Shown in pieces: positions 1,048 through 59,251 of a stretch of 64,000 bases of DNA. The first letter of the stretch is position 1. Each line of letters begins with the position of its first letter. The notes under the pieces are model-generated. The model was not told the origin of the DNA and ran no database searches. It worked only from the letters and a program-made list of their open reading frames with translations. The translations under genes were made by a program, and so were the position numbers. The stretch covers positions 224,001 through 288,000 of the forward strand of contig JBHLOY010000002.1 of assembly GCA_048939995.1 (NCBI GenBank). The letters are read 5' to 3'. The stretch comes from Promethearchaeota archaeon (GTDB taxonomy: Archaea > Asgardarchaeota > Lokiarchaeia > Sigyniarchaeales > SOKP01).

Positions 1048-2049
1048 TTGATTAATTTTGATCTTATTGAACGTTTTTTTTCGTCTATTGCAATAGTAGT
1101 AATAATTTTTTGTTTTATATTTTATTTTTCTCAAGGGCGTAAGAAAGAGGTTCTACATGAAAAAATTTTGATGTATAGTTTTGCAAGTTTTTGGCTCAGT
1201 ATTTCTTTAGCAAGAATATTTTATTATTTTTCTGACATTTTTTTAGAGGGAACTTACTCAGGTGATTTAAGCACACTTATTGAATCATATGATCTCTTAA
1301 ATTATATTATTCTTTACTTTTATCTATATTCTCATATATATATTTTAATAAGTATTATAGCATTAAGTGTTATGTTTATATGGTTTTCAATAAAGTCAAA
1401 AAAAGAATTTCAGCTAGTTTCCTCAGTAGTAGCCATTGGATTTACAATATTTTTAATAGGATGGGTTTTTGAAACGACGGCATTAAAGCAATTAAACCTT
1501 ATACCTCCAGCATTACCATCTATTTTTATAATAGTAGGAACCATAATTGCAACGATACCTCTAATTGTGGATATTGAGTTTTTTTCAAGCAAATTAATTA
1601 ATTGGTTAGTTTTAATTTCAATTGTTTTGATTTTACTTTTTTTTAGTTTAACCATTTTTACGAATCTCCCATTAGTACTTTTAAGTCAGATTATAATCTT
1701 AATTTCAACCTCTGTTTTAATTATGGTGATCATTTTTGTGGCATTTTACATAATCAAGAGAATTAAAGTATCAGAAGTTCAGGAAATAGTTCCAAAGGAG
1801 GAACTTAAAGATTTTATAAAGACTTTTATGAAGCCTGCTACCATTACAATCGAGGAAATTCAATTATATAAAGAGAAAGGATTATGTTTGGTGTGTAAGA
1901 GTAAAGTCACACGATTAAATTATGTCTGTCCCAAATGCTATGCATTATATTGTTTAAAATGCTCAAGAGCATTAACTAATTTAGAAAATAGTTGTTGGGT
2001 CTGTGAAACCCCCTTTGATGAATCTAAACCTATGAAAAAGTCTAAATAG
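1048..2049 (+). CDS. Multi-pass (~7 TM) membrane protein with C-terminal C4C4 RING-like zinc finger; candidate E3 ligase
   Basis: About seven hydrophobic segments, then CLVC-x10-CPKC-x4-CLKC-x10-CWVC; lies upstream of the JAMM/E1/E2 genes; TTG start. Confidence 0.6.
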   Translation: MINFDLIERFFSSIAIVVIIFCFIFYFSQGRKKEVLHEKILMYSFASFWLSISLARIFYYFSDIFLEGTYSGDLSTLIESYDLLNYIILYFYLYSHIYILISIIALSVMFIWFSIKSKKEFQLVSSVVAIGFTIFLIGWVFETTALKQLNLIPPALPSIFIIVGTIIATIPLIVDIEFFSSKLINWLVLISIVLILLFFSLTIFTNLPLVLLSQIIILISTSVLIMVIIFVAFYIIKRIKVSEVQEIVPKEELKDFIKTFMKPATITIEEIQLYKEKGLCLVCKSKVTRLNYVCPKCYALYCLKCSRALTNLENSCWVCETPFDESKPMKKSK

Positions 2050-2074
2050 AATAATTAATAGGAAGGTAAAGCTT

Positions 2075-2284
2075 ATGATTGAATTATTAATATTGCTGCT
2101 TCTAATATTTTTAGCAATCCCTTATATTATATTGTCTTTTATAACATTCTGGGTATATAAAGATGCAAAAAAAAGAGATATGAATGTATTTGCTTGGATT
2201 TTGGTAATTTGGTTAATACCATTCTTTATTGGGTTGGTCATTTATTTAAAGATTAGAATACAATATTCTGTCACGAGATTATAA
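2075..2284 (+). CDS. Small 2-TM membrane protein (PLDc_N-like)
   Basis: Two hydrophobic helices separated by WVYKDAKKR; purine-rich GGAAGG upstream. Confidence 0.7.
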   Translation: MIELLILLLLIFLAIPYIILSFITFWVYKDAKKRDMNVFAWILVIWLIPFFIGLVIYLKIRIQYSVTRL

Positions 2285-2303
2285 TATTTTCATAATTTCT
2301 AAT

Positions 2304-2450
2304 TTACTTACATTCTTTGGAATCTTGTTCAATAAAAAATTTTAAGACTTTATCATTTGGAGGGCGATGTTCTGGAATTTTTTTTGCTTCAATTTTCAAA
2401 AATCTTAACTCTTCACTATTGTAATTATGGGTTTTGCTTTTTTTAGTCAC
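2304..2450 (-). CDS. Possible 48-aa charged small protein divergent from the GTPase gene
   Basis: Manual translation from GTG at 2450: MTKKSKTHNYNSEELRFLKIEAKKIPEHRPPNDKVLKFFIEQDSKECK*; fills the gap between genes; no family recognised. Confidence 0.35.
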   Translation of the reverse strand: MTKKSKTHNYNSEELRFLKIEAKKIPEHRPPNDKVLKFFIEQDSKECK

Positions 2451-2549
2451 CTGATTTCACTCAAAATTTCCGTTAAATTATACTTATATTAATTAATGTT
2501 AATAACTATAATAAAATTAATTACATTTATGTAAGCAATATTAATTTCG

Positions 2550-3566
2550 ATGTTAAAGCCTCCTCAAATCTTATTTACCGGAGAAAATGGTGTTGGTAAA
2601 ACAACTATCTTGAATTTATTTCCAGAAGATATTATTTTAGAATTAGACGATAACTTTAATGAAATTTTTCAAAAGCAAGTTAATATTACTGGATTCAAAG
2701 GTATAGAACATTGTATTTTAAGAGAAATTGATTTAAGAGAATTAGTAGACAATTTTTTTTCTTTTCAAAAACTACTACAGGCTCTTGATATCATTCTCAT
2801 TGTAACTGATTCAACTGAACGAAATATTAAATATACTTATAATTTATTTTCTGAATTGAAATATAAATTACCTAAAATTGATTTTTATATAATTGCTAAT
2901 TTTCAAGACAGAAAGTCAATTTCAATGCCCATAGAAAAAATTGAATCTATATTAAAAGAGAAGGTTTTTGGATATTCGGCCATCCAAGAGGATTCAAAAG
3001 ATTCTATGACTGAAATTATTAAAGAGATTTTAGAAATTTCAATTATTAAAAAACAAGGAAAAAAGCTTTCATTTGATAAAATTGATTACAATACAATTTG
3101 GTCAGACATCGAAGAAGCAAGATTGTTGGAAAAGAAAGGAGACCATTATGCGGCATCAAAAAAATTCTCAATTGCTGGATCTAAATTTAAAATACTAAAT
3201 TCAAATGAGGAAAAAGAAGAATTTAAAGCGTTATACAATTTATGTAAGGCTTGGGAGTGTATAGAATTAGCTGAAGAATATGAGGATGTTTCGAAGTTTG
3301 CTGAAGCTGTGAAATTTTTTGATCAAGCAATTGAATCTCTATATGATGAGAAATTAAAATTTTTAGTATCCGCTAATTTAGCACATTGTGAAGCTTTAAA
3401 ATTAGGAATGGAGTCAGATACATCAGATCAACTACATATTAAAGAAAAATTATATTTAGAAATAATCGATTTAATTAACAAAGCAGTTAATTTATATAAA
3501 AGAGGAGGTTTTGAAAAAGAAGCGGAATTTGCTTTAACTACCTTGAATAAATTAAAGAGCCTTTAA
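2550..3566 (+). CDS. Divergent Ras/Arf-superfamily small GTPase domain fused to a TPR-like helical domain
   Basis: G1 GENGVGKT, hydrophobic strand IILIVTD, G4-like ANFQD, G5-like YSA; no DxxG; C-terminal alanine-rich helical repeats. Confidence 0.75.
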   Translation: MLKPPQILFTGENGVGKTTILNLFPEDIILELDDNFNEIFQKQVNITGFKGIEHCILREIDLRELVDNFFSFQKLLQALDIILIVTDSTERNIKYTYNLFSELKYKLPKIDFYIIANFQDRKSISMPIEKIESILKEKVFGYSAIQEDSKDSMTEIIKEILEISIIKKQGKKLSFDKIDYNTIWSDIEEARLLEKKGDHYAASKKFSIAGSKFKILNSNEEKEEFKALYNLCKAWECIELAEEYEDVSKFAEAVKFFDQAIESLYDEKLKFLVSANLAHCEALKLGMESDTSDQLHIKEKLYLEIIDLINKAVNLYKRGGFEKEAEFALTTLNKLKSL

Positions 3567-3619
3567 TTGAGTAAATTTAAAATTTTAGTAAAATATCTTA
3601 AAACATTACAGGAATCAAA

Positions 3620-4114
3620 TTGACGTTATTCGAAAAAGATTTTCTATTTCCAGTATACATCGATAAAAATACTTTAAATCATATTGATGAATTATGCAAA
3701 AATTCTGATAGAGAACTTTTTGGCTATTTAATTGGTTTAATTTTAAAATGGAAAAAGAATAAATATATTATTATAAAAGAACAGATTTATATTAAAAATA
3801 CAGTTAGAAGTAATAAATTTAACACATCCCAAATTGAAGGAACTGCTGGAAAATACGAACAGGAATTTCAAAAGTTGAAACATAGTATGAGGAACGAGAA
3901 TTTACGAGTTGTAGGATGGTGGCATTCCCATATCAATTTAGGGTGCTTCTTATCCTTAACTGATATTCATACACAAGAATATTTTTTTCCTGAACCTTAC
4001 CAAGTTGCATTAGTAGTTGATCCTATTCGAGAGGAATACAAATTTTTTACATTAGATGCAGGCTCAAAAAAGAAATACAAAACGCTAAGTTATGCTATTA
4101 TATCTTCAACTTAA
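3620..4114 (+). CDS. JAB1/MPN+ (JAMM) metalloisopeptidase, Rpn11-like
   Basis: RELFGYLIG (catalytic Glu) and VVGWWHSHINLGCFLSLTD = HxH-x7-S-x2-D JAMM motif; ALVVDP. Confidence 0.92.
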   Translation: MTLFEKDFLFPVYIDKNTLNHIDELCKNSDRELFGYLIGLILKWKKNKYIIIKEQIYIKNTVRSNKFNTSQIEGTAGKYEQEFQKLKHSMRNENLRVVGWWHSHINLGCFLSLTDIHTQEYFFPEPYQVALVVDPIREEYKFFTLDAGSKKKYKTLSYAIISST

Positions 4115-4131
4115 CAATTTAGTTTATATCT

Positions 4132-5013
4132 ATGCGTAAGAAAGAAAATCAAGGAATTAAAGTGATTGGAACGGATTCCATAGATTCAGATAGATTCGAT
4201 CGCCAAAAGAGAATTATTGGTTGGGATCAAACTATTATTTCTAATGCGACAATTATGGTAATTGGTGCTGGAGCTACTGGAAATGAAGTTATAAAAAATT
4301 TAGCTTTAGTCGGAGTTGGAAAGATATTTTTAATTGATTATGATTTCATTGAAACTTCAAATTTAAGTCGTTGTGTGTTGTTTAACCCTAAAGTAGCAAA
4401 GGATAAAGAATACAAAGCAGATGTTATTAAAGATGTGTGTAGAGACTTAAATCCTGATGTCGAAGTTGTTTCAATTAAAAAAGACTTAAATTCAATAGAT
4501 AAAACTCTTTATAGCAAGTGTGATGTAATATGTTCTTGCTTAGATAATCTTGAAGCACGGATAGAAGCTAACAATTATGCATATTATAATCGAATTGCTT
4601 TTGTTGATTCTGGGATCGACGAATTTTTTGGTTCAGTTCAAGCAGTATATTCAGAAGTTGAAAATTCAGCTTGTTTGCAATGCGGTATATCAGAAAAGGA
4701 TTTGGATTTAATGTGGAAAAAATTTTCTTGCACTGGAGAGGAATTAAGGTCTGAAGAAGGTGAAACCACAAATAAAATAGCAACAATCATTACGACTACT
4801 TCAATAATAAGCGGTATTCAATCTCAGCAGGTTTTAAAATTTTTACTTGGAATTAAATATTATAAGGAAGATAAAAAATGGAATCCTTATATTGGAGCAC
4901 CATTGGTTGGTAAGCAATTAATTTATAATGGCCTAACAAACAGTTTCAACATTATTGATAAAATAAAAGATCCAAATTGTTGGACTTGCTCATACAAAAA
5001 ATCTAAGATTTAA
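4132..5013 (+). CDS. Ubiquitin-activating E1-like enzyme (ThiF/UBA family)
   Basis: DRFDRQ, GAGATG, D-x-D-x3-TSNLSR, LDNLEAR, Zn pairs CLQC and CWTC, candidate catalytic Cys in FSCTGE. Confidence 0.92.
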   Translation: MRKKENQGIKVIGTDSIDSDRFDRQKRIIGWDQTIISNATIMVIGAGATGNEVIKNLALVGVGKIFLIDYDFIETSNLSRCVLFNPKVAKDKEYKADVIKDVCRDLNPDVEVVSIKKDLNSIDKTLYSKCDVICSCLDNLEARIEANNYAYYNRIAFVDSGIDEFFGSVQAVYSEVENSACLQCGISEKDLDLMWKKFSCTGEELRSEEGETTNKIATIITTTSIISGIQSQQVLKFLLGIKYYKEDKKWNPYIGAPLVGKQLIYNGLTNSFNIIDKIKDPNCWTCSYKKSKI

Positions 5014-5030
5014 ATTAGGAGGAAATATGG

Positions 5031-5558
5031 ATGCCAGAATTACCCTTTGAGATATGGAAAGAAAGAGTAAATAATGAGATAAAGATCCTAAGAAATATTA
5101 GCCTCATTGAAAATAAATCTATAGCATGGCATGATAATAGTGTAGAATTATGGATTAATTTAAGTGCCTTTGGATTCGTTAAAAGAGAAATTGAAGGAGT
5201 TATCAATGTAAAACCTCAGATGAATCACCGAATTCTCATTAAAATAAATAGATCCTTTCCATATCCAGGAGGGATTGATTTTGCTTGGTATTCAGAAATA
5301 TTTCACCCAAATATCCATCCCATTGAATTAAAAGGATTGAAAACTATAGGCACAGGTTATATTTGTTTAAATATTTTAAGACAATGGACAAAATTATCAG
5401 ATTTGGAAACTACAGTTAAATCCCTTGAAAAATTAGTAGAGAATCCCAATCCAGAGGATCCTCTTCAATATGATATTTGTATTGAAGCTGCTGAATTCTT
5501 TAAAAGAAATTCAATTCAAGAACTTAAAAAGATTTATAAAAAAGAAAATTATATTTAA
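5031..5558 (+). CDS. Ubiquitin-conjugating E2-like enzyme (UBC fold)
   Basis: FPYP...IFHPNI...GYICLNILRQW (HPN motif, catalytic Cys, Trp), NPNPEDPL; AGGAGG RBS. Confidence 0.93.
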   Translation: MPELPFEIWKERVNNEIKILRNISLIENKSIAWHDNSVELWINLSAFGFVKREIEGVINVKPQMNHRILIKINRSFPYPGGIDFAWYSEIFHPNIHPIELKGLKTIGTGYICLNILRQWTKLSDLETTVKSLEKLVENPNPEDPLQYDICIEAAEFFKRNSIQELKKIYKKENYI

Positions 5559-5824
5559 GAATTAAAAAACAAACCTCCAATAACTTTTGTCCATAACATC
5601 AAAATATCATATTCTTTTAACCCAAATTTATGAATTGCCTCCCTAATTGATATTGCATTCGGTAATTCCTTTTCCTTATACACTAAAGCATAAGAACGTT
5701 GTTCTGAACTTATAAAACCCATATGTTTAACAACAATTTCTATAATACGCTCTATTATATGATGTTCCTTTACATCTAACTTTATTCTTTTGCCTGTTCT
5801 GGTATCTTCTATTGATAATTTCAT
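5555..5824 (-). CDS. Ubiquitin-like modifier precursor (GG at residues 83-84 followed by LFFNS)
   Basis: Aligns by eye with ubiquitin: TGKRIKLDV/TGKTITLEV, EQR/QQR, YKEKEL/FAGKQL, LMLWTKVIGG/LHLVLRLRGG; stop overlaps the E2 stop (convergent). Confidence 0.88.
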   Translation of the reverse strand: MKLSIEDTRTGKRIKLDVKEHHIIERIIEIVVKHMGFISSEQRSYALVYKEKELPNAISIREAIHKFGLKEYDILMLWTKVIGGLFFNS

Positions 5825-5874
5825 TTTTTTTTTTTAATTTTTCTTTTAAAGACAAATAAATTTATTCAACTAAT

Positions 5875-5915
5875 CATTTTTAGATTTGAGTTCGAAACTT
5901 TTCACAAAGTTCGAA
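5875..5915 (-). promoter_or_regulatory. 41-bp conserved motif, copy 2, ~50 bp upstream of the ubiquitin start
   Basis: Minus strand reads TTCGAACTTTGTGAAAAGTTTCGAACTCAAATCTAAAAATG (both TTCGAA half-sites perfect). Confidence 0.78.
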
Positions 5916-5922
5916 TTAGAGA

Positions 5923-7218
5923 TTATTCTTGTTCTTTCAACTTTTTATTAATTTCATCCAATATTTTATATTTTGGAAAATCTTTTAAAATTGAGGTTAA
6001 AATGGTTTTTTCTCTTTTTATTCTGTTATAATCCTCTAATTTTAGGTTAATTATATTTTGGAAAGCTAAACCCTTAAACTTGTCTACTAAATCATCTGAA
6101 ATTGTCTCTTTTTGATATTTCCCGAATAAGAAATTGATGTAATCTGGTACAAATTTCTTTAGAGGTGATTTTATATTTCTATCAAAGAGTTTATCAGAAA
6201 TATCATTTAAAATATTGTCTAATAAATCTACGGTTTGTGAATTTCTTTCTTCTTTAGAAATATCAGGTTGTAATCTTTTGAGATAACTAAACTTTAGAAT
6301 GTTCTCATCTATAATTAAATGCAACATTTTATCAATTTTGTCATCCTCTCGAAAATAATATACCACTTCATCATTAAGTCTTAAATTGAAAAATTTTGTA
6401 TCATATAAATCCTCTTCAGTAATCTTTTGCGTACAAAAAGTAAGTGTAGCTAGTTTAATATTATATTTAAGAGAAAAATTTTCTTGTGAAATATATTCTG
6501 GATATCGACTTGGATGATTTATAGAAAGAAATAATAATATTTTATAAAAATCTTCTTTTGATGGGAGTATATTCTCAATGAAGCTATAATTCAAATGATT
6601 GATTAAATCTAGAAATAAAATTTCAATTTGGCTATCTTCAACATTCTGCTCTTTAAGAAACCTTCTGACGTTTTCTTTGATACTTTCTATTTTATCTATT
6701 TCTTCTTCTAAAACTGATTGATAATCTAATTGGTATCTTTTCAGCATTTTATTATATCGTTCCTCACCTATTCTAGTGATTCTGTATTCCATGTTTTCAC
6801 TATCAACAAAACCTTTTTTCATTAAAAGATTTAAATATTTTGATAGAGAATTATGATTGAGAGAAAGAGGTTTTTCAATAAAATCTGACCACTTTAAATA
6901 GTCGTTATTAAATAACATCCACAAGATGATATGAGCATAATTTCTCTTGTTTAAAATGATCTCTGGAGGATATCTTAATTTTCTCTCAAATGAATCTTTA
7001 AATTTTAAATCTATATATCTTTTTTTACCTTCAGCAGTAGCTAGATAAACTCCTTTACTCTTTTTCTCAACATATCCGTTTGAAATTAATAATTTCATGT
7101 ATTTAGACAATGTAGCTAAGCTGATTTCTAACGGCTCATCTAAAAAGACAGACCAATTACATTCCTCATTATTATTAAGCATCCAGAGGATTATATATTC
7201 AAAATCTTTCTTCTCCAT
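5923..7218 (-). CDS. Tandem winged-helix (ArsR/MarR-like) DNA-binding protein with long helical C-terminus; probable regulator
   Basis: Two internal repeats IILWML-x-NN...W...PL...LSKY...L...G[YF]V...Y...T..G..RY. Confidence 0.8.
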   Translation of the reverse strand: MEKKDFEYIILWMLNNNEECNWSVFLDEPLEISLATLSKYMKLLISNGYVEKKSKGVYLATAEGKKRYIDLKFKDSFERKLRYPPEIILNKRNYAHIILWMLFNNDYLKWSDFIEKPLSLNHNSLSKYLNLLMKKGFVDSENMEYRITRIGEERYNKMLKRYQLDYQSVLEEEIDKIESIKENVRRFLKEQNVEDSQIEILFLDLINHLNYSFIENILPSKEDFYKILLFLSINHPSRYPEYISQENFSLKYNIKLATLTFCTQKITEEDLYDTKFFNLRLNDEVVYYFREDDKIDKMLHLIIDENILKFSYLKRLQPDISKEERNSQTVDLLDNILNDISDKLFDRNIKSPLKKFVPDYINFLFGKYQKETISDDLVDKFKGLAFQNIINLKLEDYNRIKREKTILTSILKDFPKYKILDEINKKLKEQE

Positions 7219-8643: not shown

Positions 8644-10356
8644 ATGATTAAAATGATAGAAAAAGCTTCTTCTAAAAAAAGATTTCCTAATATCAAAGAA
8701 TTCAAGAAAATAATCATAGTTGGAGGGTCAATAATAAGCTTAGCGATAGTTGGGATTATAAGTGGAATTATTATTATGGGAGATATCCCGCAAGGAGGTA
8801 TTCTTAAAGTAGGTATAACTAAACCTATTGGAGAAATTGACCCTCTTATGTATAGCTTTTCTTCAGAAGAAATAGTAATTAATCATGTTACCGAGACGTT
8901 ATTTGATAATATTTATATAGGTGGTAAATCTCAAACTCTTCCTCATCTAGCATTAGATGGAAATTGGAGTTCGGACTACCTAAATTTCACATGCACACTT
9001 AGAAAGAATGTCATGTTCCATGACGGAACGCCATTTAATGCTGCAGCCGTTAAATGGAACTTCGATAGAATTCCTCAAATTATCGATCCATCACTTCCAG
9101 ATTGGTATTGGTGGGCTTACCTATTTCTTTTACCAGATGGGCGCTGGATTGTAAATAAAACTCTAGTCTTAGATTCCCATATTGTAAAATTTGTTTTAAA
9201 TGATGTTTTTGTACCTTTTCGAGAATTATTAACTCATAGTACTACAAGTATTTTATCACCATCATCAACCCCTGCGGATAAACCCCTAAATATACACATT
9301 GATAATTTAGTTGGAACCGGTCCTTTTATATATGATGGTTATGAACCTAATGTCAATATGTCATTATCTCCTAATCAGAATTACTGGGGAGCAAAACCTA
9401 AAATTGATGAGGTAATTTTAAAGTTTTATTCTCCAACTAATCGTACTAATCGTATTAATATTTTATGGAATGCGCTTTTAGCAGGAGAAATTCATATAGT
9501 AGACCGAGATTTTATTAAGTTTTTAATAATGTACTATCCAGACCGATCTATCGAACTCCTTAAAGGAGTTGCAGGAATTACAGTTCAACAAAAGCCTACT
9601 ATAAGCAATTATTATGTTTTTTTTTATCCTAAACTTGTTAATAGTACAATGAGAAAGGCAATATCTTATGCAATTAACTATTCTAATATACTTGAAATAG
9701 TTCCTAACTCTATAACAGCCAGATCCCCAATTCCAGAAGGTATCTCTTACTCTAACATTACTGGTATTGACATTCCTTATTATAACATTTCAAAGGCGAG
9801 ACAGATGTTAATTGACGAAGGTTGGCCTGGAACAGCGGGTTTAACGGCAAATGACAATATTACAGCAGGAAACGAATGGGAACAATTAGTAACTAATGGA
9901 TCCCCTCTTGCAATATATAATTTATCTTATTATACAGAGAATCCATACAATGAATTACCACCAATTCCTTTTCCAGAAAATCTTAAACAAATTGGAGTCA
10001 ATGTATCATGTCGATCAATTTGGAGTGGTGCTCCGTCTCAACTTGAAACATTAATGTGGATGTATGACTATAACGATCCACACACTGGTATTATGATGGA
10101 TTATCATTCAAAATGGACTTTATGGACCGACTTTAATGTTAGTGTATTAGATGAATTGATAGAAGAAGGAATTAAGGAGATAAACCCTGTTTTAAGAGAA
10201 GCGATATACTATAATATTCAAAAACTTATAATCGAGGAAATTTGTCCTGTTATATTTACTCTCTCTCCACGAAATTTAGATATATATGCATCAAATTTAA
10301 TGGACTGGCAAATTTATCCATTCAAAATAGTATTTAAAACAGTTCACTTCGTCTAA
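8644..10356 (+). CDS. ABC transporter substrate-binding protein, family 5 (DppA/OppA-like), membrane anchored
   Basis: N-terminal TM; ETLF, LRKNVMFHDGTPFNAAAVKWNFDR, VGTGPF, RKAISYAINY. Confidence 0.92.
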   Translation: MIKMIEKASSKKRFPNIKEFKKIIIVGGSIISLAIVGIISGIIIMGDIPQGGILKVGITKPIGEIDPLMYSFSSEEIVINHVTETLFDNIYIGGKSQTLPHLALDGNWSSDYLNFTCTLRKNVMFHDGTPFNAAAVKWNFDRIPQIIDPSLPDWYWWAYLFLLPDGRWIVNKTLVLDSHIVKFVLNDVFVPFRELLTHSTTSILSPSSTPADKPLNIHIDNLVGTGPFIYDGYEPNVNMSLSPNQNYWGAKPKIDEVILKFYSPTNRTNRINILWNALLAGEIHIVDRDFIKFLIMYYPDRSIELLKGVAGITVQQKPTISNYYVFFYPKLVNSTMRKAISYAINYSNILEIVPNSITARSPIPEGISYSNITGIDIPYYNISKARQMLIDEGWPGTAGLTANDNITAGNEWEQLVTNGSPLAIYNLSYYTENPYNELPPIPFPENLKQIGVNVSCRSIWSGAPSQLETLMWMYDYNDPHTGIMMDYHSKWTLWTDFNVSVLDELIEEGIKEINPVLREAIYYNIQKLIIEEICPVIFTLSPRNLDIYASNLMDWQIYPFKIVFKTVHFV

Positions 10357-13205: not shown

Positions 13206-14156
13206 TTAGATATTGAATCCATCGTCAAAATCATCAAACTCATCCTCATCGATTTCAACATCAAATCTCTCTACTTCCTTTTCTTTAAGCTTTTTCTTAA
13301 GTTCTCTTCGTTCTTTGTGGGTTTGATCATAACGTTTAATGTAGACTTTTTCATATTTTTCCCGTAGTTTCTCTACACTCTCAACTTGTCCAATTTTATC
13401 TTGTAATCCATCTTCAAAAAACCAATTCCTTTTAAATTCTTTAGCTGGAATCCCAACATAAATATAATTGTCTTTTAGTATTTGCCCTACTGTTGTAACT
13501 GAATTAGCTGCTAGTACACTTCGTTTTCCAATATGAGTTCCTGGCATTACTATTGCATGTGAACCGATTCTGACATCATCTTCGATTACAGTCTTGCGAA
13601 TAATTAGTAAATTGCCTATAATAACGCTAGATTGGATTATAGCCCCTTGACCAACAACGCAATTCTTTCCGAACTCTATAAATTCTGTATCCACCCAACC
13701 TTCAAAGAGCGAATTTGAAAACTTGGTTTTAACAGAGAAGACTTTAAAACAAACATTATCTAAAAAGGGGAACGGAAATTTATGTGCCAACCAAAAAGGA
13801 AATCTCTTAATTGTGCTTCTCAGGCTCCAATAACGATAGTCTTTATCAGATCGATGCCTAAGGAAAGTCCCTTGACGTGGTTTATGAATTGCATTTACTA
13901 TTACAAGAATAATTTTTGCAAAAAAGATAGCAGAAAATACCGCAGTAACATACATAACAAAACATAAGAGTGGTAAAAAAGTATAGAAATGAATTGGTCT
14001 TACATAATCCCATAACCATTGCCAATATGCCCAAAATTCAAGCAAAATTGGCAAAATTGAAGCCCAAATTATAATAATATAAAATGTTAAATATCGTTTC
14101 TTCACTAAAACCGTCGGTAAGAACGGCCCTACCCTCATCGTATTCGGAACTGACAT
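13206..14156 (-). CDS. 2TM + hexapeptide (left-handed beta-helix) acyltransferase-like protein, class C
   Basis: Two TM helices, KPRQGTFLR..DYRYW, FGKNCVVGQGAII, IEDDVRIGSHAIVMPGTHIG, YVGIPA. Confidence 0.8.
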   Translation of the reverse strand: MSVPNTMRVGPFLPTVLVKKRYLTFYIIIIWASILPILLEFWAYWQWLWDYVRPIHFYTFLPLLCFVMYVTAVFSAIFFAKIILVIVNAIHKPRQGTFLRHRSDKDYRYWSLRSTIKRFPFWLAHKFPFPFLDNVCFKVFSVKTKFSNSLFEGWVDTEFIEFGKNCVVGQGAIIQSSVIIGNLLIIRKTVIEDDVRIGSHAIVMPGTHIGKRSVLAANSVTTVGQILKDNYIYVGIPAKEFKRNWFFEDGLQDKIGQVESVEKLREKYEKVYIKRYDQTHKERRELKKKLKEKEVERFDVEIDEDEFDDFDDGFNI

Positions 14157-14162
14157 ACTTTT

Positions 14163-16055
14163 TCAATCCTCCTTTGTTTTTACTAACTTAAGTTTATCCT
14201 CATCAATATTTACATCATGCTCTACTTCAAACTTCTCAGAATCGTCAACTTCTCTCTTTATTATGATATCCCGTCGTTCTTCAGCATATTTGTTCTCTTT
14301 CAACTTAATTGCTGGAATTCCAAAATATACCCATGCAGGTTCTAGAATTTGATTGACTGTGGTACTTGAAATTGCACCGATGACAGAATCATTCCCCATA
14401 ATTGTTCCTGGGGCTATAGTTGTATGGCCACCCACTAAGACGTAATCTCCAAATATTACCGGCTTTACAATTAAATATTTGCCAACAATCATCGAGGACA
14501 TGATTGTAGCACCTTGACCTATCAAATTCTTTCTTCCAAATGTGATAAATTCACCATCACACCACGCATCATTAAGATGACTCGAGAAATCCATTTTAGT
14601 ACCAAACCATCTAAATGCTAGTACATCTAACCAAGGAAGTGGAGAATTTCTTAAAAGCCACAAAGCAATTTTCTTTAATTCTGTACGAAGAAGCCAAAAT
14701 TCATAGTCCATATCTCTGAGTTGAGCCAGAAAGATTCCCTCCTTAGGATGGTGGATTAGATTTACAAGAATTAATAATAATTTGCTAAAAAGTAAAACTC
14801 CAAGAATAAATATGTATGACATAAAAAGAATTGCTATTGGAAGATATAAAAGTGAGTTTATATGAAAATCATATAGATATAAATGCCATCCTTTTGTTAA
14901 TTCATACCAAAACAAGCAAATAAACAGGCCTGTCAACCATAAGATTGGCAAGTATACTGCTAAGAATTTAATATTGACTCTACTTATTGCACTTGTTGTA
15001 GTAAAATCCAAAGCAAGATCTTCACTTTTTAGATTATCAATATCAATATGTTCAAGATCATCAACATCATGCAATTCTTCTTCTAAGTCTTCCTCTTCTT
15101 CAAATTCCTCTACTTTGATAAGAGATTCTTTTTCATTTTCTTTCATTTTTTCTTTTTTCTTTTTCTTGATATAATTTTCTGGATTTTCGTTTTTTATTAA
15201 ATCTTCTTCAGTTAACCCTAACCAATTCATAATCTTTTTCTTAAAAATCTTTCTCAGAGGAAGACCAAAATAATAATTGTTTTCTCCCTTGAGAACGCTA
15301 TGTGCATTAGTAGATGACAATGGAAGTAAATAAGCATCGCTTTTAATCTCAGAACCTGGTCCAATCTGATTCATAGCAGCAAGAGTAACATTGTCTCGCA
15401 AATAAATTCGAAAATAATTAATATTACCAAATATTCCAGTAAGAATGTGACTAGCTAATGTCGAATTAACTCCTATATAGCAGTTTTTGCCCACGTCTAT
15501 AAACTTATCGGACCCTACCGACTCTTCTATTGTTGTACCCTTCCCTACCTTAGAATCAATCTGCCTAAGATACCACTTTGATATCCAAGGAAATGCTCCT
15601 TTATTAAAAACATTTTTCCCGTATTTATAAATAAAACTCCTTAAATGGTAATAGTTTGCAGTTTTACTCTTAATATTTCTGGGGATAATCCCATCTTTTG
15701 AAGGAGAAATCTTTTCTGTAATTGCCCAAAAAATTCGTGTGATGATTCCTATCAAAAGTAACCTAACCAAATAGCAGGCTATTATGACTAAGGGCATACA
15801 TAATAGAGAAAGTAAAGGTCCTAACTCCGTAAATATGGAAATGAAATTAGCCGTTTCCAAAAAATTAGGGAGAAAAATGAAGAGAACATAAGCAAAGAAT
15901 ATGAAGCCGGGTACTAGCCAAGAACCATAATAAATAATTAAAAAAATCGTAATATAGAGATGAAATTGAAGGCTAACTTCTTCCTTAACCACTTCTTCTT
16001 CATTATTATTATCTGAATCTTCATTCTTTCCTGAATCTTCAGACATTGTTTTCAT
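14163..16055 (-). CDS. Fused double [2TM + LbH] protein, classes A+B
   Basis: Two modules (VGKGTTIE..VGKNCYIG..YFGLP; FGRKNLIGQGA..GGHTTIAPGTIMG..YFGIP) joined by a K/E-rich linker. Confidence 0.8.
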   Translation of the reverse strand: MKTMSEDSGKNEDSDNNNEEEVVKEEVSLQFHLYITIFLIIYYGSWLVPGFIFFAYVLFIFLPNFLETANFISIFTELGPLLSLLCMPLVIIACYLVRLLLIGIITRIFWAITEKISPSKDGIIPRNIKSKTANYYHLRSFIYKYGKNVFNKGAFPWISKWYLRQIDSKVGKGTTIEESVGSDKFIDVGKNCYIGVNSTLASHILTGIFGNINYFRIYLRDNVTLAAMNQIGPGSEIKSDAYLLPLSSTNAHSVLKGENNYYFGLPLRKIFKKKIMNWLGLTEEDLIKNENPENYIKKKKKEKMKENEKESLIKVEEFEEEEDLEEELHDVDDLEHIDIDNLKSEDLALDFTTTSAISRVNIKFLAVYLPILWLTGLFICLFWYELTKGWHLYLYDFHINSLLYLPIAILFMSYIFILGVLLFSKLLLILVNLIHHPKEGIFLAQLRDMDYEFWLLRTELKKIALWLLRNSPLPWLDVLAFRWFGTKMDFSSHLNDAWCDGEFITFGRKNLIGQGATIMSSMIVGKYLIVKPVIFGDYVLVGGHTTIAPGTIMGNDSVIGAISSTTVNQILEPAWVYFGIPAIKLKENKYAEERRDIIIKREVDDSEKFEVEHDVNIDEDKLKLVKTKED

Positions 16056-21715: not shown

Positions 21716-22567
21716 CTAGCCTTTTGAAATTATTTTATCTTTTCTCCTAGTATAAAGCTCTTCATATTTCTTTCCTAACTGCTCCATATCATGTTTTTGT
21801 TCAGCAATCACTTCTTCCAATCCTTCCTCAAAAAATACGTCTTTTTTATACTTTCTCGCAGGAGCGCCAAGATAAACCCATCCTTCTTCTAATTCCTGCC
21901 CAACAGTTGTAAGTGAGCTAGCAGCTAATACACAATTCTTATGAATGTGAGTTCCTGGCATAACAACAGAATGGACGCCGATCCTTACATTATCCTCGAT
22001 GATTGTTTTTCTAATAATCAGTAAGTTCCCAATGATTGTAGCAGATTGGATAATACTTGCTTGGCCACAAACTACGTTTTTTCCAAATTCTATAAACTCT
22101 GTATCACACCATGACTCAAAAAGTGAATTTGAAAGAGTTGTCTTAACTCCAAAGAATTTAAAGCAGAGATTATCTAAGAAAGGAAGCGGAAACTTATGAG
22201 CAACCCATATTGGCCACTTTTTAATAGTATTTCGAATACTCCAATAACGATAGTCACGATCCATTGGATCTCTAAGAAATGTGCCTTCACGAGGCTTATG
22301 CAGAAGATTAGCGCAAATTAATAAAAACTTAGCAATTAATAACGATGAAAAAACCAGTGAAACATACATAGTGAATATTAAAAGTGGTAGAAAAATAAGA
22401 AAATGCACAAACCTAGTCGTGTATAATGAACTCCAATACCACCAAAATTCGAACTGGATCACAAAAAGACTAAACCAAATTTCAAAGATGTATAGGATTA
22501 AATATTTTTTCTTTACTAATACTAGACTTGTATGAGGTCCTACCCGAAAATTTCCTGGTACAGACAT
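21716..22567 (-). CDS. 2TM + LbH protein, class C; paralog of 13206..14156
   Basis: MSVP..RVGP..LVKK.YL, KPREGTFLR..DYRYWSIR, hexapeptide repeats. Confidence 0.8.
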   Translation of the reverse strand: MSVPGNFRVGPHTSLVLVKKKYLILYIFEIWFSLFVIQFEFWWYWSSLYTTRFVHFLIFLPLLIFTMYVSLVFSSLLIAKFLLICANLLHKPREGTFLRDPMDRDYRYWSIRNTIKKWPIWVAHKFPLPFLDNLCFKFFGVKTTLSNSLFESWCDTEFIEFGKNVVCGQASIIQSATIIGNLLIIRKTIIEDNVRIGVHSVVMPGTHIHKNCVLAASSLTTVGQELEEGWVYLGAPARKYKKDVFFEEGLEEVIAEQKHDMEQLGKKYEELYTRRKDKIISKG

Positions 22568-23460
22568 TAATCCTCTTCTTCGTGATTATAATTATTATTT
22601 AATAAATTTTTTTTTTCATCATCGATATTAACTTCATGTTCAACTTCAACACTTGTTTCTTCTTCAACATCCCTCTTAAAAATTCTATCTCGTCTTTGTT
22701 GTGCATACTTGTTTGGTTTATACTTCATTGCCGGAAGTCCAAGATAGATCCAGCCAGGTTCTAAAAATTGGTTATAATTTGTATTTGTAAATGCGCCACT
22801 TACGGATTCTTCTCCAAAAATAGTGCCAGGAGAAACATTAGAAACTCCTCCTACTACCGTATAATCTTCAAAAATTACCTTCTTTATAATCAAATATTTT
22901 CCAACAACCATAGAGCTCATAACTATACTTCCTTGGCCTATAGTTATTTTCCTGCCGAACTTAATAAAATCTGTATCTACCCATGCATCTTGAAGATGAC
23001 TAGAGAAATCCATATGGACACCAAACCATCTAAAACCCCACATTACAATCCAGGGCAATGGACTATTTGTCATCAGCCATAATGCTAACTTCTTTAACTC
23101 GATTCGCAATCGCCAAAACTCAAAATCAGTATTCCCGGGCTCTGCTCTAAATACTCCCTCTTTTGGCTTATGTATCATATTTACGATTAATAAACATGCC
23201 TTTGAAAAAATTGCTATACCAAAAATAAAAATAAAGTATAATATAAAAAGCCAAAATGGAATCAGCAGCATACTAGCAATCCAATTATTTAGATATCGAG
23301 AAACATCAAAAAACACAGTAATTGCCATATATCCACTAATCCACAAAATTGGAATGTATAGAACAAGAAATTTCCAACTTATTCTACTTATTGCACTACT
23401 GGTGATAAAATCAATTGTATAGTCTATTTTATCATTTGTTTCGTCTTTAGCTTCACTCAT
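22567..23460 (-). CDS. 2TM + LbH protein, class B; corresponds to the C-half of 14163 and 25468
   Basis: DFITSSAISR, HKPKEGVF..DFEFWRLRIELKK, MDFSSHLQDAW, VEHEVNIDDEK. Confidence 0.8.
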   Translation of the reverse strand: MSEAKDETNDKIDYTIDFITSSAISRISWKFLVLYIPILWISGYMAITVFFDVSRYLNNWIASMLLIPFWLFILYFIFIFGIAIFSKACLLIVNMIHKPKEGVFRAEPGNTDFEFWRLRIELKKLALWLMTNSPLPWIVMWGFRWFGVHMDFSSHLQDAWVDTDFIKFGRKITIGQGSIVMSSMVVGKYLIIKKVIFEDYTVVGGVSNVSPGTIFGEESVSGAFTNTNYNQFLEPGWIYLGLPAMKYKPNKYAQQRRDRIFKRDVEEETSVEVEHEVNIDDEKKNLLNNNYNHEEED

Positions 23461-23470
23461 CTTGCAAACT

Positions 23471-24352
23471 TCACCTTACTTTTTCCTCATTTTTCTTATC
23501 TCTGAGCTTTTCTGCCTTTTCAAAATCTGCTTCAGTTATATCTAAATAGTCTATTACTTTTTTTTTAAAGATACGACGCAATGGAGCACCAAAATAGTAA
23601 TTATCACCTTTTAGGATGTTAAATTTAGTCGCGCCACTCATCGGTAATAACCATGAGTTATCGTTTACTTCTGAACCAGGGCCAACACAATTAAATGCAC
23701 CAGCAGTAACATTATCACCAATTTTAACTCTAAAATAAGAAATATTACCAAATATCCCTTCTACAGCATGAGAACTGATCGCTCCTCCTATCCCAAAATA
23801 ACAATTCTTCCCAATAGTGACGAATCTATCAGCGCCTACATTCTCTTCGAGAGTAGTTCCTTTTCCGATTATATTGGTTCCAATAAAATTGTAAAGCCAC
23901 GTGATTAGCCAAGGAAAAGGACCTCTTATTATAGAATTTTTTGGATATTTTATAACAAAACTTCGAATATGATAATAATTTGCCGTTTTACTAGGAATGT
24001 TTCTAGGGATAATTCCATCCTTAGAAGGTGAAATTTTTTCAGTTGTCCTCCAAATACCTCGTGTGATAAGGGCCATGAAAAACACATGAACTAAATAACA
24101 TAATATGATTATCAATGGCATAAAAATTGAAGCTAAAAGCGGTTCCAGTCGCGTAAACAGCAAAATGAATTTATTTTCTTGCAAAAAATATGGTGAATAG
24201 AATAACATGACATACAGCATGAAAATAATTGCTGGAATAATGAACGACCCAAAATAAATTATGAAAAATAAAATCATATACCAATGAAACTGGAGATTTA
24301 TTTCTTCCTTAGCGATTCCTTTATCAGTTTCATTTATTTGAGTGGTTTTCAT
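23471..24352 (-). CDS. 2TM + LbH protein, class A; corresponds to the N-half of 14163 and 25468
   Basis: EKISPSKDGIIPRNIPSKTANYYHIRSF, IGKGTTLEE, HAVEGIFGNI, YYFGAPLRRIF. Confidence 0.8.
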   Translation of the reverse strand: MKTTQINETDKGIAKEEINLQFHWYMILFFIIYFGSFIIPAIIFMLYVMLFYSPYFLQENKFILLFTRLEPLLASIFMPLIIILCYLVHVFFMALITRGIWRTTEKISPSKDGIIPRNIPSKTANYYHIRSFVIKYPKNSIIRGPFPWLITWLYNFIGTNIIGKGTTLEENVGADRFVTIGKNCYFGIGGAISSHAVEGIFGNISYFRVKIGDNVTAGAFNCVGPGSEVNDNSWLLPMSGATKFNILKGDNYYFGAPLRRIFKKKVIDYLDITEADFEKAEKLRDKKNEEKVR

Positions 24353-24530
24353 CTCTTAACTTATGCACATTTTTTTAAAGTTATCATAGAAATAATTATA
24401 TGAATATTATTATGAGTTCTTTGACTATTTATTATGATATAATTTAAAAATTTCCACACTATTGATTTTAGGAATAATATATTAAGAAAAAATAAAAGGT
24501 TAAATATTATATTTTATTAAAAATTTTGAA

Positions 24531-25367
24531 TCAATCTTTAGGTTTTTCTTTTTTAGGAAACCATGGTATAAATGAGCTAGTTCTCTTCTTGTATGCGGCA
24601 TATTCTTCATTCCCTTCGAATCTCTTATCTAATAATCGTACTCCTGATACTTTTATTATTTGAAACGTAATATATGCAGGGCCAATAAATGTTATAAATC
24701 CGAATGGGACAGCTAATGCTATTACAAAGAGACCCCACCATTGAGTTACTTCTCCAAAATAATTAGGATGTTGCGAATATTTCCATACACTTTTAGTCAT
24801 AATTCTGTTCTTGTTAGCTGGATTTTGCAAAAATTTATAAAGGGAATAATCTGCGATAGTTTCAAAGAGAAATCCTATTAACCAGATTATTGATCCTAAC
24901 CATAAAGTTACTCCTCCAAAATCTAATAAATTGGTTACAGGAGGATTGGCACTTATATTTACAAACCATACAGGGATACAAACGAGAAAAACTATAATTC
25001 CTTGGAATAAATAGACTTTAAAGAGACTTTTTAGAGCAACATTTTTTTTCCAACGTTCACGCATTGCTTTATATCGATAATCTTCAGGTTTTCCTCTATT
25101 TCTTATAAAAACATAGGTTGCTAGCCTAATCGCCCAGATTAATACTAATATCGTTACTATAATTTGACGAATGCAATAACTTGACGTGAATACCAGATTA
25201 AGTATAAGGCTTGTTAATGCAACAACAAAATAAGCAGGGCCATAAAATATGTCCATGATTGCATTATTTCTTTTTATTGTTCCGACTATAAAAGCAATGA
25301 ATATGTATATAAATAGTGCTAATGCTGAGTATCCAATTGTTGTTAACATAATTTCAATAGTTGTCAT
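24531..25367 (-). CDS. DUF1295 / steroid 5-alpha reductase-like membrane protein
   Basis: WAIRLA, EDYRY, ETIADY, WKYSQHPNYFGE, YKKRTSSFIPW. Confidence 0.88.
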   Translation of the reverse strand: MTTIEIMLTTIGYSALALFIYIFIAFIVGTIKRNNAIMDIFYGPAYFVVALTSLILNLVFTSSYCIRQIIVTILVLIWAIRLATYVFIRNRGKPEDYRYKAMRERWKKNVALKSLFKVYLFQGIIVFLVCIPVWFVNISANPPVTNLLDFGGVTLWLGSIIWLIGFLFETIADYSLYKFLQNPANKNRIMTKSVWKYSQHPNYFGEVTQWWGLFVIALAVPFGFITFIGPAYITFQIIKVSGVRLLDKRFEGNEEYAAYKKRTSSFIPWFPKKEKPKD

Positions 25368-25467
25368 AAAAAATACGATTAAATATTAAAATCTTAAAAG
25401 ATGATTATTTGGAAAATATTTATAGTTTATATCTATTAAATAAAGATTTTAAGATTTTTTTTAGGAG

Positions 25468-27288
25468 CTACAGCTTTTTTTTTTTATCCTCTTCGATGTT
25501 TACTTCATGTTCAACATGAAACTTAACTTCTTCATCTACATCTTTTTTAACAATGATGTCCCTTCTCGTTTCGGCATATTTGTTCGGTTTTAGCTTTATT
25601 ACTGGTATTCCTATATAAATGTAGCCTGGCTCTAAAACTTGGTTTAGTGTGGTAATAGAGATAGCAGCAACAACCGTATCCTTTCCAACGATTGTTCCAG
25701 GGGCAATAGTTGTGTGACCTCCTACTAAAGCATAGTCATCTAGAATTATCCTAGAAATTATTAGATATTTCCCGATTACCATTGAGCTCATCAGATTTGC
25801 GCCTTGCCCAATCATTACTTTTCTCCCAAAATAGATAAACTCGCCATCGCACCATGCATCATATAGATAACTTGAATAATCCATTTTGATTCCAAACCAC
25901 TTAAAAGCAAGAGCATCAGCCCAAGGGATAGGGCAATTTCGCATTAGCCATAAAACAACTTTTTTTAACTCAGTACGCAAAAGCCAAAATTCGTAGTCCA
26001 TATCTCTGAGTTGAGCCAAAAAAATTCCTTCCCTAGGGCGATGAAATAAATTGACGAGGATGAGAAACAACTTACTATATAAAAAACAACCTAAAATGAA
26101 AGCAAAATATAGGAAGAATAACAGTGCGGGTAAGAAAAATACGAAGAGGATAGGGTTGGTTACGAACACTGTGTAGGTATAAAATAGGATCCCAACTTGT
26201 AATCCGCTAATCCAGAAGATAGGGAGATAAACTGCCAGAAATTTAATATTAATTCTACTAATTGCTGAGCTAGTAGTAAAATCAACAGTTAAATCTAATT
26301 CTTCATTTTTGATATCATCCTTCTGTTCTTCTTTTAATAATGGATTAGATTCACCTTGAAATTCGTTTAAGATTTTTTTCTTTTTATGCTTCTTGGATTT
26401 TTTATCAGGCACTAAAGTTTTTAAAGAAATCTTATTTTTATCCAATTCTTCTTGCGTTAAATTAAGATATCTCATGACTTTTTTATCAAATATACGTCTT
26501 AAGGGAATTCCGAAATAATAATTATGTTCTCCCTTTAGAACGCTATGCTTAGTGGCAGATGCCAAAGGTAATAGATAAGAATTATCTTTAATCTCTGTTC
26601 CAGGACCAATCTGATTGATCCCTGCTGTGGTAACATTATCTCCAACGTTGATTTGAAAGTATGCGATATTGCCAAAAATTCCTTCTACTAAGTGAGTAGC
26701 TAACGTCGAGCCTACAGCAAAATAACAATTTTTTCCTACAATTCCGAATTTATCATTTCCAACAGATTCCTCAAGTGTACTTCCCTTTCCAATAACCATT
26801 GAACCCACAAAATTAAATAGCCAATTAGAGAGCCATGGAAATAGTCCCTTAACGAACAAGTTCTTAGGATACTTAATGAGAAACGATCTAAGATGATAAT
26901 ATTTCTCAGTTTTACTTCTAATGTTACGTGGAATAATGCCACTTTTACTGGGGGACTTCTTTTCAGTATATCTCCATATTAAACGAGTGATTATTGCGAC
27001 AAATAATAATCTAATAAGGTAACATATAATCAAGACAATTGGCATCGTCAGAAATGCAATTAGCGGCTCAAGTTCGGTAAAAAGACTAACAATATCGGGT
27101 ATAGCTAAAAATTTTGGCAAAAAGAAAGCAAAAACATAGAACATAAATAGAGCGATGGGAACGAGAAAGGATGCTAAATAGATTGTTAATAAAATGACTA
27201 TAGCTGAAAAATATTGAACGCTTAGTTCTTCCCTCTGTACGGGAGGTTTTAACAGTTTAGATGCTTTTACTTGGGGTCTTGATTCCAT
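25468..27288 (-). CDS. Fused double [2TM + LbH] protein, classes A+B; paralog of 14163..16055
   Basis: Same two modules; identical EGIFLAQLRDMDYEFWLLRTELKK segment. Confidence 0.8.
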   Translation of the reverse strand: MESRPQVKASKLLKPPVQREELSVQYFSAIVILLTIYLASFLVPIALFMFYVFAFFLPKFLAIPDIVSLFTELEPLIAFLTMPIVLIICYLIRLLFVAIITRLIWRYTEKKSPSKSGIIPRNIRSKTEKYYHLRSFLIKYPKNLFVKGLFPWLSNWLFNFVGSMVIGKGSTLEESVGNDKFGIVGKNCYFAVGSTLATHLVEGIFGNIAYFQINVGDNVTTAGINQIGPGTEIKDNSYLLPLASATKHSVLKGEHNYYFGIPLRRIFDKKVMRYLNLTQEELDKNKISLKTLVPDKKSKKHKKKKILNEFQGESNPLLKEEQKDDIKNEELDLTVDFTTSSAISRINIKFLAVYLPIFWISGLQVGILFYTYTVFVTNPILFVFFLPALLFFLYFAFILGCFLYSKLFLILVNLFHRPREGIFLAQLRDMDYEFWLLRTELKKVVLWLMRNCPIPWADALAFKWFGIKMDYSSYLYDAWCDGEFIYFGRKVMIGQGANLMSSMVIGKYLIISRIILDDYALVGGHTTIAPGTIVGKDTVVAAISITTLNQVLEPGYIYIGIPVIKLKPNKYAETRRDIIVKKDVDEEVKFHVEHEVNIEEDKKKKL

Positions 27289-52870: not shown

Positions 52871-53063
52871 TTCTTAGGAAAAAATATCTTGCAGATTTCA
52901 CAGTATTTTATCCTACTGATACATTTAAACTTTTCATTTAAAATAATAATCTTTCAATAAAATGATTTGAATTTATATTCTGTACGTCTGTTACAGTTTA
53001 TTGATCTATCAACACAATGTTTAAATATATTAATAATCGAATAAGAAGTTAAAAATTTGAGAC

Positions 53064-54749: not shown

Positions 54750-54819
54750 TTAATAATATTTTCTCCTAAGTTAATGTTTTTTAGATTAATTATAGTTAAA
54801 AAAGTATGTTCTATGAAGA

Positions 54820-54834
54820 CATATAAAGTTTTTG
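54820..54834 (-). promoter_or_regulatory. BRE/TATA-like promoter CAAAAACTTTATATG
   Basis: Identical 15-mer at 57213-57227; near matches at 61022-61035 and 52922-52935; all upstream of minus-strand starts. Confidence 0.6.
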
Positions 54835-54894
54835 TCAATTTATCTAACCCAAAAAAATTTAATTATTTCATAAACTGTTCAAGATTTCTAAAGG

Positions 54895-56601: not shown

Positions 56602-56634
56602 TATCTATTTTCCTCTAATATAAGAAATTATTTT

Positions 56635-57470: not shown

Positions 57471-57507
57471 TTGACTATAACATCTTATAATCTAATTGAA
57501 AATTCAC

Positions 57508-59214: not shown

Positions 59215-59251
59215 TTAACTAAGCCTTCTTTTAATCTAATTAAAATTTTTC

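Follow-up and report, generated by a model that had tools for sequence, protein, structure and literature searches.

We analysed a 64,000-nucleotide stretch of DNA (the window) from a Lokiarchaeon (Promethearchaeota; assembly GCA_048939995.1, contig JBHLOY010000002.1, positions 224,001 to 288,000), in which eight open reading frames (ORFs) between positions 1048 and 7218 encode a ubiquitin-like modifier (Ubl), a JAMM metalloprotease, an E1, an E2, a seven-helix membrane protein with a RING-like finger and three further partners. Judged from sequence comparisons, the locus is a second, accessory Ubl system of a different E1/E2 lineage, standing beside the canonical Asgard ubiquitin locus elsewhere in the same genome. 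The host genome measures 3.75 Mb at ~30% GC and carries the locus on its contig C17, and named homologs of the locus proteins come from Promethearchaeota/Lokiarchaeia. All eight ORFs have the coordinates, order and orientation given in an original prediction made from the DNA letters, and every gene shows purifying selection against two relatives (dN/dS 0.02-0.31), which rules out that any of them is spurious or dead. Pfam matches exceed the cut-off for JAB, ThiF, UQ_con and HTH_45 and fall below it for the RING finger, the Ubl and the tetratricopeptide-like (TPR) repeats.

The JAMM/MPN+ metalloprotease (3620..4114, + strand; PF01398 JAB, 4.8e-11) is predicted to be both the pro-Ubl maturase and the deconjugase. 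It is followed by a minimal E1 of 293 aa (4132..5013, +; ThiF, 5.8e-45) comprising an adenylation domain, a zinc site and the catalytic Cys200, and by an E2 with a 10-residue insert, HPN92-94 and Cys112 (5031..5558, +; UQ_con, 2.5e-10). The catalytic motifs are intact, as the original prediction held, and are kept throughout the orthologs: HxH-x7-S-x2-D of JAMM in 64/64, GxGxxG of E1 in 66/66 and HPN..ICL of E2 in 66/66, with Cys200 of E1 and Cys112 of E2 invariant. That prediction overlooked two features of the enzymes. First, the E1 has neither a C-terminal ubiquitin-fold domain (UFD) nor a large Cys domain, a short loop being all that follows Cys200; it stops 7 residues past the last CxxC, within the 4-9 residues typical of its lineage, versus 84-154 in canonical Asgard E1s. 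This E1 is nearer to UBA1 (3e-31) than to MoeB (3e-19) or BubCD (4e-12). Second, the C-terminal tail of the E2, present in 64 of the 66 orthologs, is acidic and closes with four hydrophobic residues (IIII), resembling in sequence a SUMO-interacting motif, and the window E2 and its nearest relative have lost this tail through a ~41-bp deletion. As a speculation, the tail might stand in for the missing UFD; the window copy would either tolerate the loss or be partly decayed, with selection still purifying.

The modifier gene lies on the opposite strand (5555..5824, -) and encodes a pro-Ubl in which the GG motif is followed by five residues (GG-LFFNS). G83-G84 is invariant among orthologs and the extension after it is unconserved (0-11 aa); in the window an altered stop codon accounts for LFFNS. 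The ESM Atlas groups it with ubiquitin-like clusters at 0.92-0.95; profile matches to ubiquitin, NEDD8 and RUB1 are weak and the Pfam match (TUG-UBL1, 1e-3) is below cut-off. The gene evolves slowly (dN/dS 0.02-0.04). Two unusual arrangements were seen among relatives: a Ubl of the window family without GG stands at the N-terminus of a fusion protein of >430 aa (L159:2-1297, genome G280), and an insertion of ~2.7 kb parts E1 from E2 in one genome (AMARA_1S; L114:6400-10100).

At the other end of the locus lies the 333-aa membrane protein (1048..2049, +), a candidate membrane E3 on AF2, Foldseek and profile evidence. Its AF2 model (pLDDT 77) has seven long helices and a C4C4 RING-like domain spanning Cys280-Cys319, which bears out its earlier description as a 7TM RING-like protein. 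The distribution of charge, with basic loops 1 and 3 and C-tail and an acidic loop 2, gives an N-out/C-in topology that places the finger in the cytoplasm. Searches of the 7TM bundle with Foldseek and VIA returned no convincing structural relative, and likeness of the transmembrane (TM) part to Hrd1 or MARCH was looked for and none was found. Homology to GPCRs or rhodopsins is not claimed here: the best GPCR-fold match (Z 10.3, rmsd 3.1, 155 residues aligned) covers the first five helices only and lies within the range of unrelated helical bundles. For the zinc domain, the best fold matches are the RING E3s TRIM37, RAD18, HRD1 and Ring1B (Foldseek probability 0.8-0.99 but E>0.7), the best profile match is RNF4 (3e-5), and Pfam zf-C3HC4_3 matches at 1e-3, below cut-off. 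The zinc ligands are conserved in the family, as C4C4 in 54 members and C4HC3 in 8.

In modelling, the E2 and the RING formed a complex scoring 0.68, while the best control reached 0.02; runs share at least 36% of contacts and the partner pLDDT is at least 73. The mark used was reached by 58 of 80 solved pairs and 2 of 110 mismatched pairs. In the model, helix 1, Pro77 and residues 121-124 of the E2 face residues 281-285, 304-313 and Trp317 of the RING domain. Of the 12 residues that the E2 contributes to this interface, 10 do not vary across 67 sequences. Contact between a RING and the helix-1/loop-4/loop-7 surface of an E2 is the canonical geometry of E2-RING pairs.

Genomes with this RING family encode 1-18 members, in which a common RING output is joined to two unrelated 7TM classes, to FG-GAP beta-propeller ectodomains, to TPR repeats and to zinc ribbons. 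The commoner 7TM class, one member of which is HisKA_7TM-like (1e-4), carries TIR in place of RING in the host genome. This 7TM-TIR fusion lies at G000 C17:476434-477660, the same 7TM class bears RINGs in other genomes, and two stand-alone copies of it occur at C33:271 and C23:53175. The host also has a lone RING-family fragment without a membrane part, probably a remnant, at G000 C11:489981-490250, and in three Sigynarchaeum-type genomes (G039, G041 and G043) the RING family occurs within open frames of 2000-2800 aa.

Between the membrane protein and JAMM lie two further genes. The first (2075..2284, +) encodes a 69-aa two-helix membrane hairpin for which a PLDc_N/YxlD-like assignment is a lead only (Atlas 0.86-0.90). 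The second (2550..3566, +) joins an Arf-like GTPase domain, with best profile matches to ARL5/ARF1/ARL3 at E~5e-5, to a TPR-like helical domain (8e-5, below the Pfam cut-off). As the name 'degenerate GTPase' implied, the G1 P-loop is kept while EIDL replaces G3 and NFQD replaces the NKxD of G4, and DxxG was found in 0 of 82 relatives; since the replacement holds throughout, the protein is unlikely, from its motifs, to be a normal switch. Most relatives have a longin domain that the window protein lacks, and relatives add longin, TPR-nitrilase or TIR domains. An adaptor or a substrate is what this GTPase-TPR protein may be. The intervening DNA holds an antisense reading frame of ~50 codons (2310..2460, -), whose PE.RPPN motif is kept in 4 loci, and an AT-rich block (2485..2549, +) conserved in window-like and satellite loci, a probable promoter of the GTPase gene. 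A sigma-70 promoter scan, the wrong model for archaea, stayed at chance level (54 versus 48 +/- 8).

The eighth gene (5923..7218, -) encodes a tandem winged-helix (wHTH) protein with two HTH_45 stretches (4.7e-12), co-oriented with the Ubl gene and 98 bp upstream of it. This short wHTH stays upstream of Ubl in satellite loci and through inversions. The original prediction called it the locus's own regulator. Half of this holds, in that the gene travels with the Ubl; DNA binding and transcriptional regulation by the protein, a truncated member without TPR repeats of a wHTH-TPR family with 8 copies, are putative.

A GTDB scan gave 71 cassette loci, 42 of them with at least 4 kb on either side (the well-flanked set), and presence was profiled over 135 genomes of the family. 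Related genomes are non-independent samples for both synteny and co-occurrence, so no P value is given; NCBI labels on relatives' contigs (Hodarchaeota, Thorarchaeota) clash with GTDB kinship (e.g. L076 is G032, in the same genus) and were not used. Among the well-flanked loci, JAMM and Ubl are present in 42, E1 in 41, GTPase in 40, RING in 35, hairpin in 16 and wHTH in 15, and synteny persists over the 71 loci while flanks and gene order change. The GTPase gene lies immediately upstream of JAMM in 54 of 61 loci and the RING immediately upstream of Ubl, on the same strand, in 31 of 53. Apart from the Rab-like family, no unrelated neighbour occurs in more than 14 loci. Rab-like GTPases (39/71 loci) were discounted as partners, the genome having 55 copies of them, and chance adjacency was ruled out: the host encodes a single full-length RING of this family, besides a fragment, and a single close GTPase. 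The hairpin travels with this RING class, occurring in 21 of 71 loci, mostly adjoining a TM-RING, with dN/dS of 0.03-0.10. At genome level, E1 and RING occur together in 69 genomes, E1 only in 1, RING only in 11 and neither in 54. The RING is therefore present in 69 of 70 E1-positive and 11 of 65 E1-negative genomes; several of those 11 are incomplete and two hold core parts. The membrane and GTPase genes thus do co-occur with the E1/E2/JAMM core in related genomes, and these synteny data together with the structural checks support the proposal of a membrane-associated ubiquitylation module with the 7TM-RING and the GTPase as members.

The short GTPase-TPR form found in the window occurs in 18 loci, in 17 of which RING and hairpin lie directly upstream (one locus stops at a contig edge), and in 4 of which JAMM and E1 follow as in the window. 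In 13 loci from 12 genomes, which we call satellites, the short GTPase-TPR gene converges directly on Ubl and the short wHTH with no enzyme genes between. From these patterns, the locus amounts to a satellite plus an enzyme block, and its five non-enzyme genes move as a unit, which links the wHTH to the Ubl system. An E1 core is encoded elsewhere in 11 of the 12 satellite genomes, and the satellite Ubls form a clade of their own, weakly (84) sister to the window's Ubl.

The original prediction compared the locus with the ubiquitin clusters known from Caldiarchaeum and Asgard archaea. The locus is not one of these, as its E1 and E2 are of another lineage and the canonical Asgard locus lies on another contig, C23, with a multi-pass RING-like protein, JAMM, E2, a 410-aa E1 with a C-terminal domain, and Ubls. 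This canonical locus (G000 C23:189322-195816, L149) includes a 376-aa protein that spans the membrane several times, ends in a RING-like finger and has no Pfam match; the Ubls of the locus end in TAG instead of GG. No similarity was found between the window Ubl and the canonical C23 Ubl. The window E1 shares 27% identity with the C23 E1 and 39-40% with the E1s of L141 (a Micrarchaeota-type genome) and L148 (an archaeal contig). In an E1 tree with long outer branches and no eukaryotic or Caldiarchaeum rows, it joins Micrarchaeota and L148 in one clade (100/99), with the C23, C24 and L033 E1s and the genome's MoeB-like proteins outside. Beyond these Lokiarchaea, the nearest E2 relatives lie on Thermoplasmatota, Theionarchaea and Micrarchaeota-type contigs, several of them as Ubl-E2 fusions; other Asgard E2s score only ~1e-11, versus ~1e-90 within the window clade.

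Several observations concern these non-Asgard relatives. The short-E1 ubiquitin cassettes L141:5450-10489 (Micrarchaeota-type) and L148:1018-5208 (archaeal contig) are ones on which we found no paper, and comparison with the L141 E1 gave 517 proteins at E<=1e-40, the named ones mostly from Micrarchaeota. P0248, P0250, P0259 and P0261 are Ubl-GG-E2 fusions related to the window E2 family. A short KPR[IV][IV]-like motif, possibly a shared docking motif, occurs in E2 tails and adjoining low-complexity proteins (L141:8831-9625, L143:9064-9261, L148:4405-5208; P0249, P0253, P0257).

Within the host's family, the canonical C23 E2 was matched in 125 of 135 genomes (seven solely via a more distant paralogue) and the window E1 in 70 of 135. 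The system is also found in a Sigynarchaeum-type family, whose scattered orthologs rule out confinement to a single family; there longin-GTPase, JAMM and E1 are kept together, E2 and Ubl are scattered and 6-14 RINGs are encoded. The 14 genomes examined from a sister family, which appears to hold the cultured Lokiarchaea, yielded neither a cassette E2 nor a strong RING match. Within several genera some genomes have the system and others do not, so the co-occurrence of E1 and RING goes beyond the inheritance of a single block, and the cassette tree requires 6 genus changes (minimum 3, shuffled mean 12.4), an excess that suggests some transfer.

Taken together, the locus is probably an accessory Ubl conjugation pathway of two Lokiarchaeal families that acts as a membrane signalling output. 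We regard it as very likely that the cascade is active, and likely that this RING family supplies its E3; that receptor-coupled signalling is its purpose has about an even chance. On this proposal, JAMM would trim the pro-Ubl after GG and later take Ubl off targets, for which its motifs and the Caldiarchaeum precedent argue. The minimal E1, carrying the motifs for it, would adenylate the Ubl and hold it on Cys200, and the Ubl would pass to Cys112 of the E2 without a UFD, by another docking route. The cytoplasmic C4C4 RING of the 7TM protein, linked to the enzymes by synteny, would engage the charged E2 through its canonical surface as modelled and promote transfer onto lysines of membrane-proximal targets. 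The switch-less GTPase-TPR would then act as adaptor or substrate, with the hairpin and wHTH, likewise linked, as accessories. One E1 and one E2 would thus serve 1-18 RINGs whose receptor-like inputs can be exchanged, so that the E3's membrane or extracellular part would be where the signal enters.

Several points weigh against this proposal. The finger lacks the usual Pro after Cys7 and the basic linchpin after Cys8, and Pfam/PDB profiles also match, as weaker alternatives, C1, PHD and TFIIH p44 fingers. Conservation of E2 helix 1 may serve E1 binding instead, and because E2-RING complexes are abundant among solved structures, the model shows likeness rather than binding. The multi-pass protein with a RING-like end at the canonical locus means that RING-E2 pairing could cross systems. 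Moreover, the window copy lacks the E2 tail that nearly all orthologs keep, and the linkage data come from related genomes.

Of the three roles originally proposed, receptor-coupled signalling fits best, with defence and membrane-protein quality control as less probable alternatives. As an antiviral or conflict system, the membrane RINGs would sense an invader and the cascade would tag viral or effector proteins, as in Bil/Bub and CBASS Cap2-Cap3. The patchy presence in 70 of 135 genomes, the signs of transfer, the variable receptors on a fixed core, and the occurrence of TIR, and of a nitrilase domain matching a DRT defence model (3e-13), in fusions with the GTPase, TPR and 7TM families all suit this idea. 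Yet TIR occurs in only 2 of the 42 well-flanked loci, flanks consist of metabolic and housekeeping genes rather than defence islands, E1 is nearly always single-copy and the Ubl evolves very slowly. PADLOC matches only generic E1/JAB and gives none for E2, Ubl or RING, and the E2 motif is the eukaryote-type HPN rather than the CEHH of BilB (PMC11354881). We therefore consider defence an unlikely purpose, though the strongest competitor to signalling.

Constitutive quality control of the Hrd1/Doa10 kind, in which the 7TM bundle would recognise damaged membrane proteins and tag them for extraction, is quite improbable. A polytopic bundle with a cytoplasmic RING is the layout of ERAD, fold matches include the zinc finger of HRD1, and a small membrane hairpin is present as partner. 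Such a system should, however, be core, and half of the family is without it while retaining the canonical one; genes for Cdc48, the proteasome or rhomboids are absent from the recurrent neighbours, searches found no likeness of the TM part to Hrd1 or MARCH, and the RING also occurs on soluble proteins and on single-pass proteins with an ectodomain. Signalling is preferred over quality control mainly because interchangeable inputs on one conserved output are a receptor pattern.

UFD-less E1s such as UBA5, ATG7 and those of bacterial systems often work without RINGs. The JAMM-E1-E2-Ubl core could likewise be E3-independent, with the finger as a C1/PHD/p44-like interaction module and the membrane genes as substrates or co-inherited neighbours, a view to which the sub-threshold Pfam scores of the finger, its matches to several finger types and 7 well-flanked loci without a nearby RING lend something. 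We give it little credence in view of the near-perfect genome-level co-occurrence of E1 and RING, the RING ligases among best fold matches, the canonical interface of the model and the RING-like finger that the Micrarchaeota relative of the cassette (L141) also encodes. A MoeB/ThiF-type sulfur-carrier pathway without protein conjugation, suggested by the MoeB-sized E1 with its short Cys loop only, is extremely improbable given the invariant catalytic E2, an E1 nearer UBA1 than MoeB, the genome's MoeB-like proteins outside the E1 clade and the lack of rhodanese or cofactor genes among recurrent neighbours.

Archaeal Ubl cascades with RING and JAMM are already known. With the Ub/E1l/E2l/srfp/Rpn11 operon of Caldiarchaeum subterraneum and the Asgard Cluster I/II operons, the locus shares a pro-Ubl with GG and an extension, an E1, an HPN-type E2, a RING and a JAMM in one cluster (PMC5654768; 10.1101/2023.07.25.550441). 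Unlike in those operons, its E1 falls in another clade and has neither a C-terminal UBL/UFD nor the Cys domain, its RING is a 333-aa 7TM C4C4 protein of an expanded family instead of a small soluble RING-H2 (srfp), a pseudo-GTPase is a fixed member, and it coexists with a canonical locus. By analogy, then, it would work like the Caldiarchaeum cascade (PMC5654768), yet it falls outside that group on E1 architecture, E1 orthology and E3 type. Archaeal Cluster III, compared here by description only, also has E1s without a C-terminal UBL, and bacterial E2s are the group in which its E2s fall (PMC5654768, supplement notes 4 and 6). The nearest named relatives of the window E2 are archaeal. The short-E1 cassettes of Micrarchaeota, Thermoplasmatota and Theionarchaea (L141, L148) are similar in their E1s, which have the same pre-Cys motif, and in a related E2 N-terminus and hydrophobic tail, Ubl and JAB. 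In the loci examined, some with Ubl-E2 fusions, neither the longin/GTPase nor the 7TM-RING was present.

Eukaryotic membrane RING E3s (Hrd1, MARCH/Doa10, RNF43/ZNRF3) combine a membrane domain with a cytoplasmic RING, and many E3s serve each E2. The locus resembles them in layout, with no homology of the TM bundle detected and on a non-canonical E1 lineage, and the likeness is most likely parallel invention. Bacterial Bil/Bub and CBASS Cap2/Cap3 likewise have Ubl, E1, E2 and JAB as an accessory cassette, but the window's E1 and E2 are eukaryote-like, a RING is present, and there is neither a cyclase nor a defence-island setting. Asgard longin-GTPase fusions and ArfR proteins, as described in the accessible parts of two reports (10.1101/2020.10.19.343400; 10.1101/2024.02.28.582541), share the Arf-like G domain, usually behind longin; the window protein differs in its replaced G3 and G4, in having no amphipathic helix and in the loss of longin. 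In those parts we found no mention of a linkage of these GTPases to a ubiquitin cassette, and a limited literature search found no published description of this cassette; it may have been listed earlier as an asCOG or in a cluster figure.

The surroundings of the locus show further features. Among ORFs read by eye, with some Pfam scans, no ESCRT, proteasome or ribosomal gene was seen in the window, in agreement with the original prediction; nothing follows from the lack of ESCRT, since in Lokiarchaeota the regions for ubiquitin and for ESCRT lie apart anyway (PMC9192718). Many orphan solute-binding proteins of SBP_bac_5 type flank the locus (window 8644-10356 and 51173-60946, and upstream C17:217157-223637), several paired with a single-TM gene of 330-350 aa and with no permease seen; such flanking genes recur in only 13 orthologous loci. 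A group of membrane proteins carrying hexapeptide (left-handed beta-helix) repeats occupies 13206-16055 and 21716-27288.

According to the 2017 reconstitution paper, expansion of the E3s was the open step between archaeal and eukaryotic ubiquitylation, and the archaeal RINGs of which it knew were all small and soluble (PMC5654768, supplementary note 6). Here is an Asgard lineage with multi-pass and single-pass membrane RINGs, in up to 18 copies, tied to a single E1/E2 pair. Absence from the sister family that apparently holds the cultured Lokiarchaea hampers in vivo work; the enzymes offer a small soluble system for studying how a UFD-less E1 charges a canonical-type E2. More tentatively, the system may be an independent E3 pyramid of eukaryotic style, in which a UFD-less E1 and one E2 would serve up to 18 receptor-like membrane RINGs, with 7TM inputs swappable with TIR outputs and enzyme-less satellites bringing their own Ubl paralogue, receptor-E3 and pseudo-GTPase adaptor; if true, a 7TM receptor would here trigger the ubiquitylation of a GTPase switch that does without the nucleotide cycling of G proteins. 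Because the enzymes belong to a lineage other than the canonical, UFD-bearing one of the genome, the finding probably informs on parallel evolution and not on direct eukaryotic ancestry. Asgard cells appear able to run at least two unrelated Ubl cascades, one of them with an E1 shared with Micrarchaeota.

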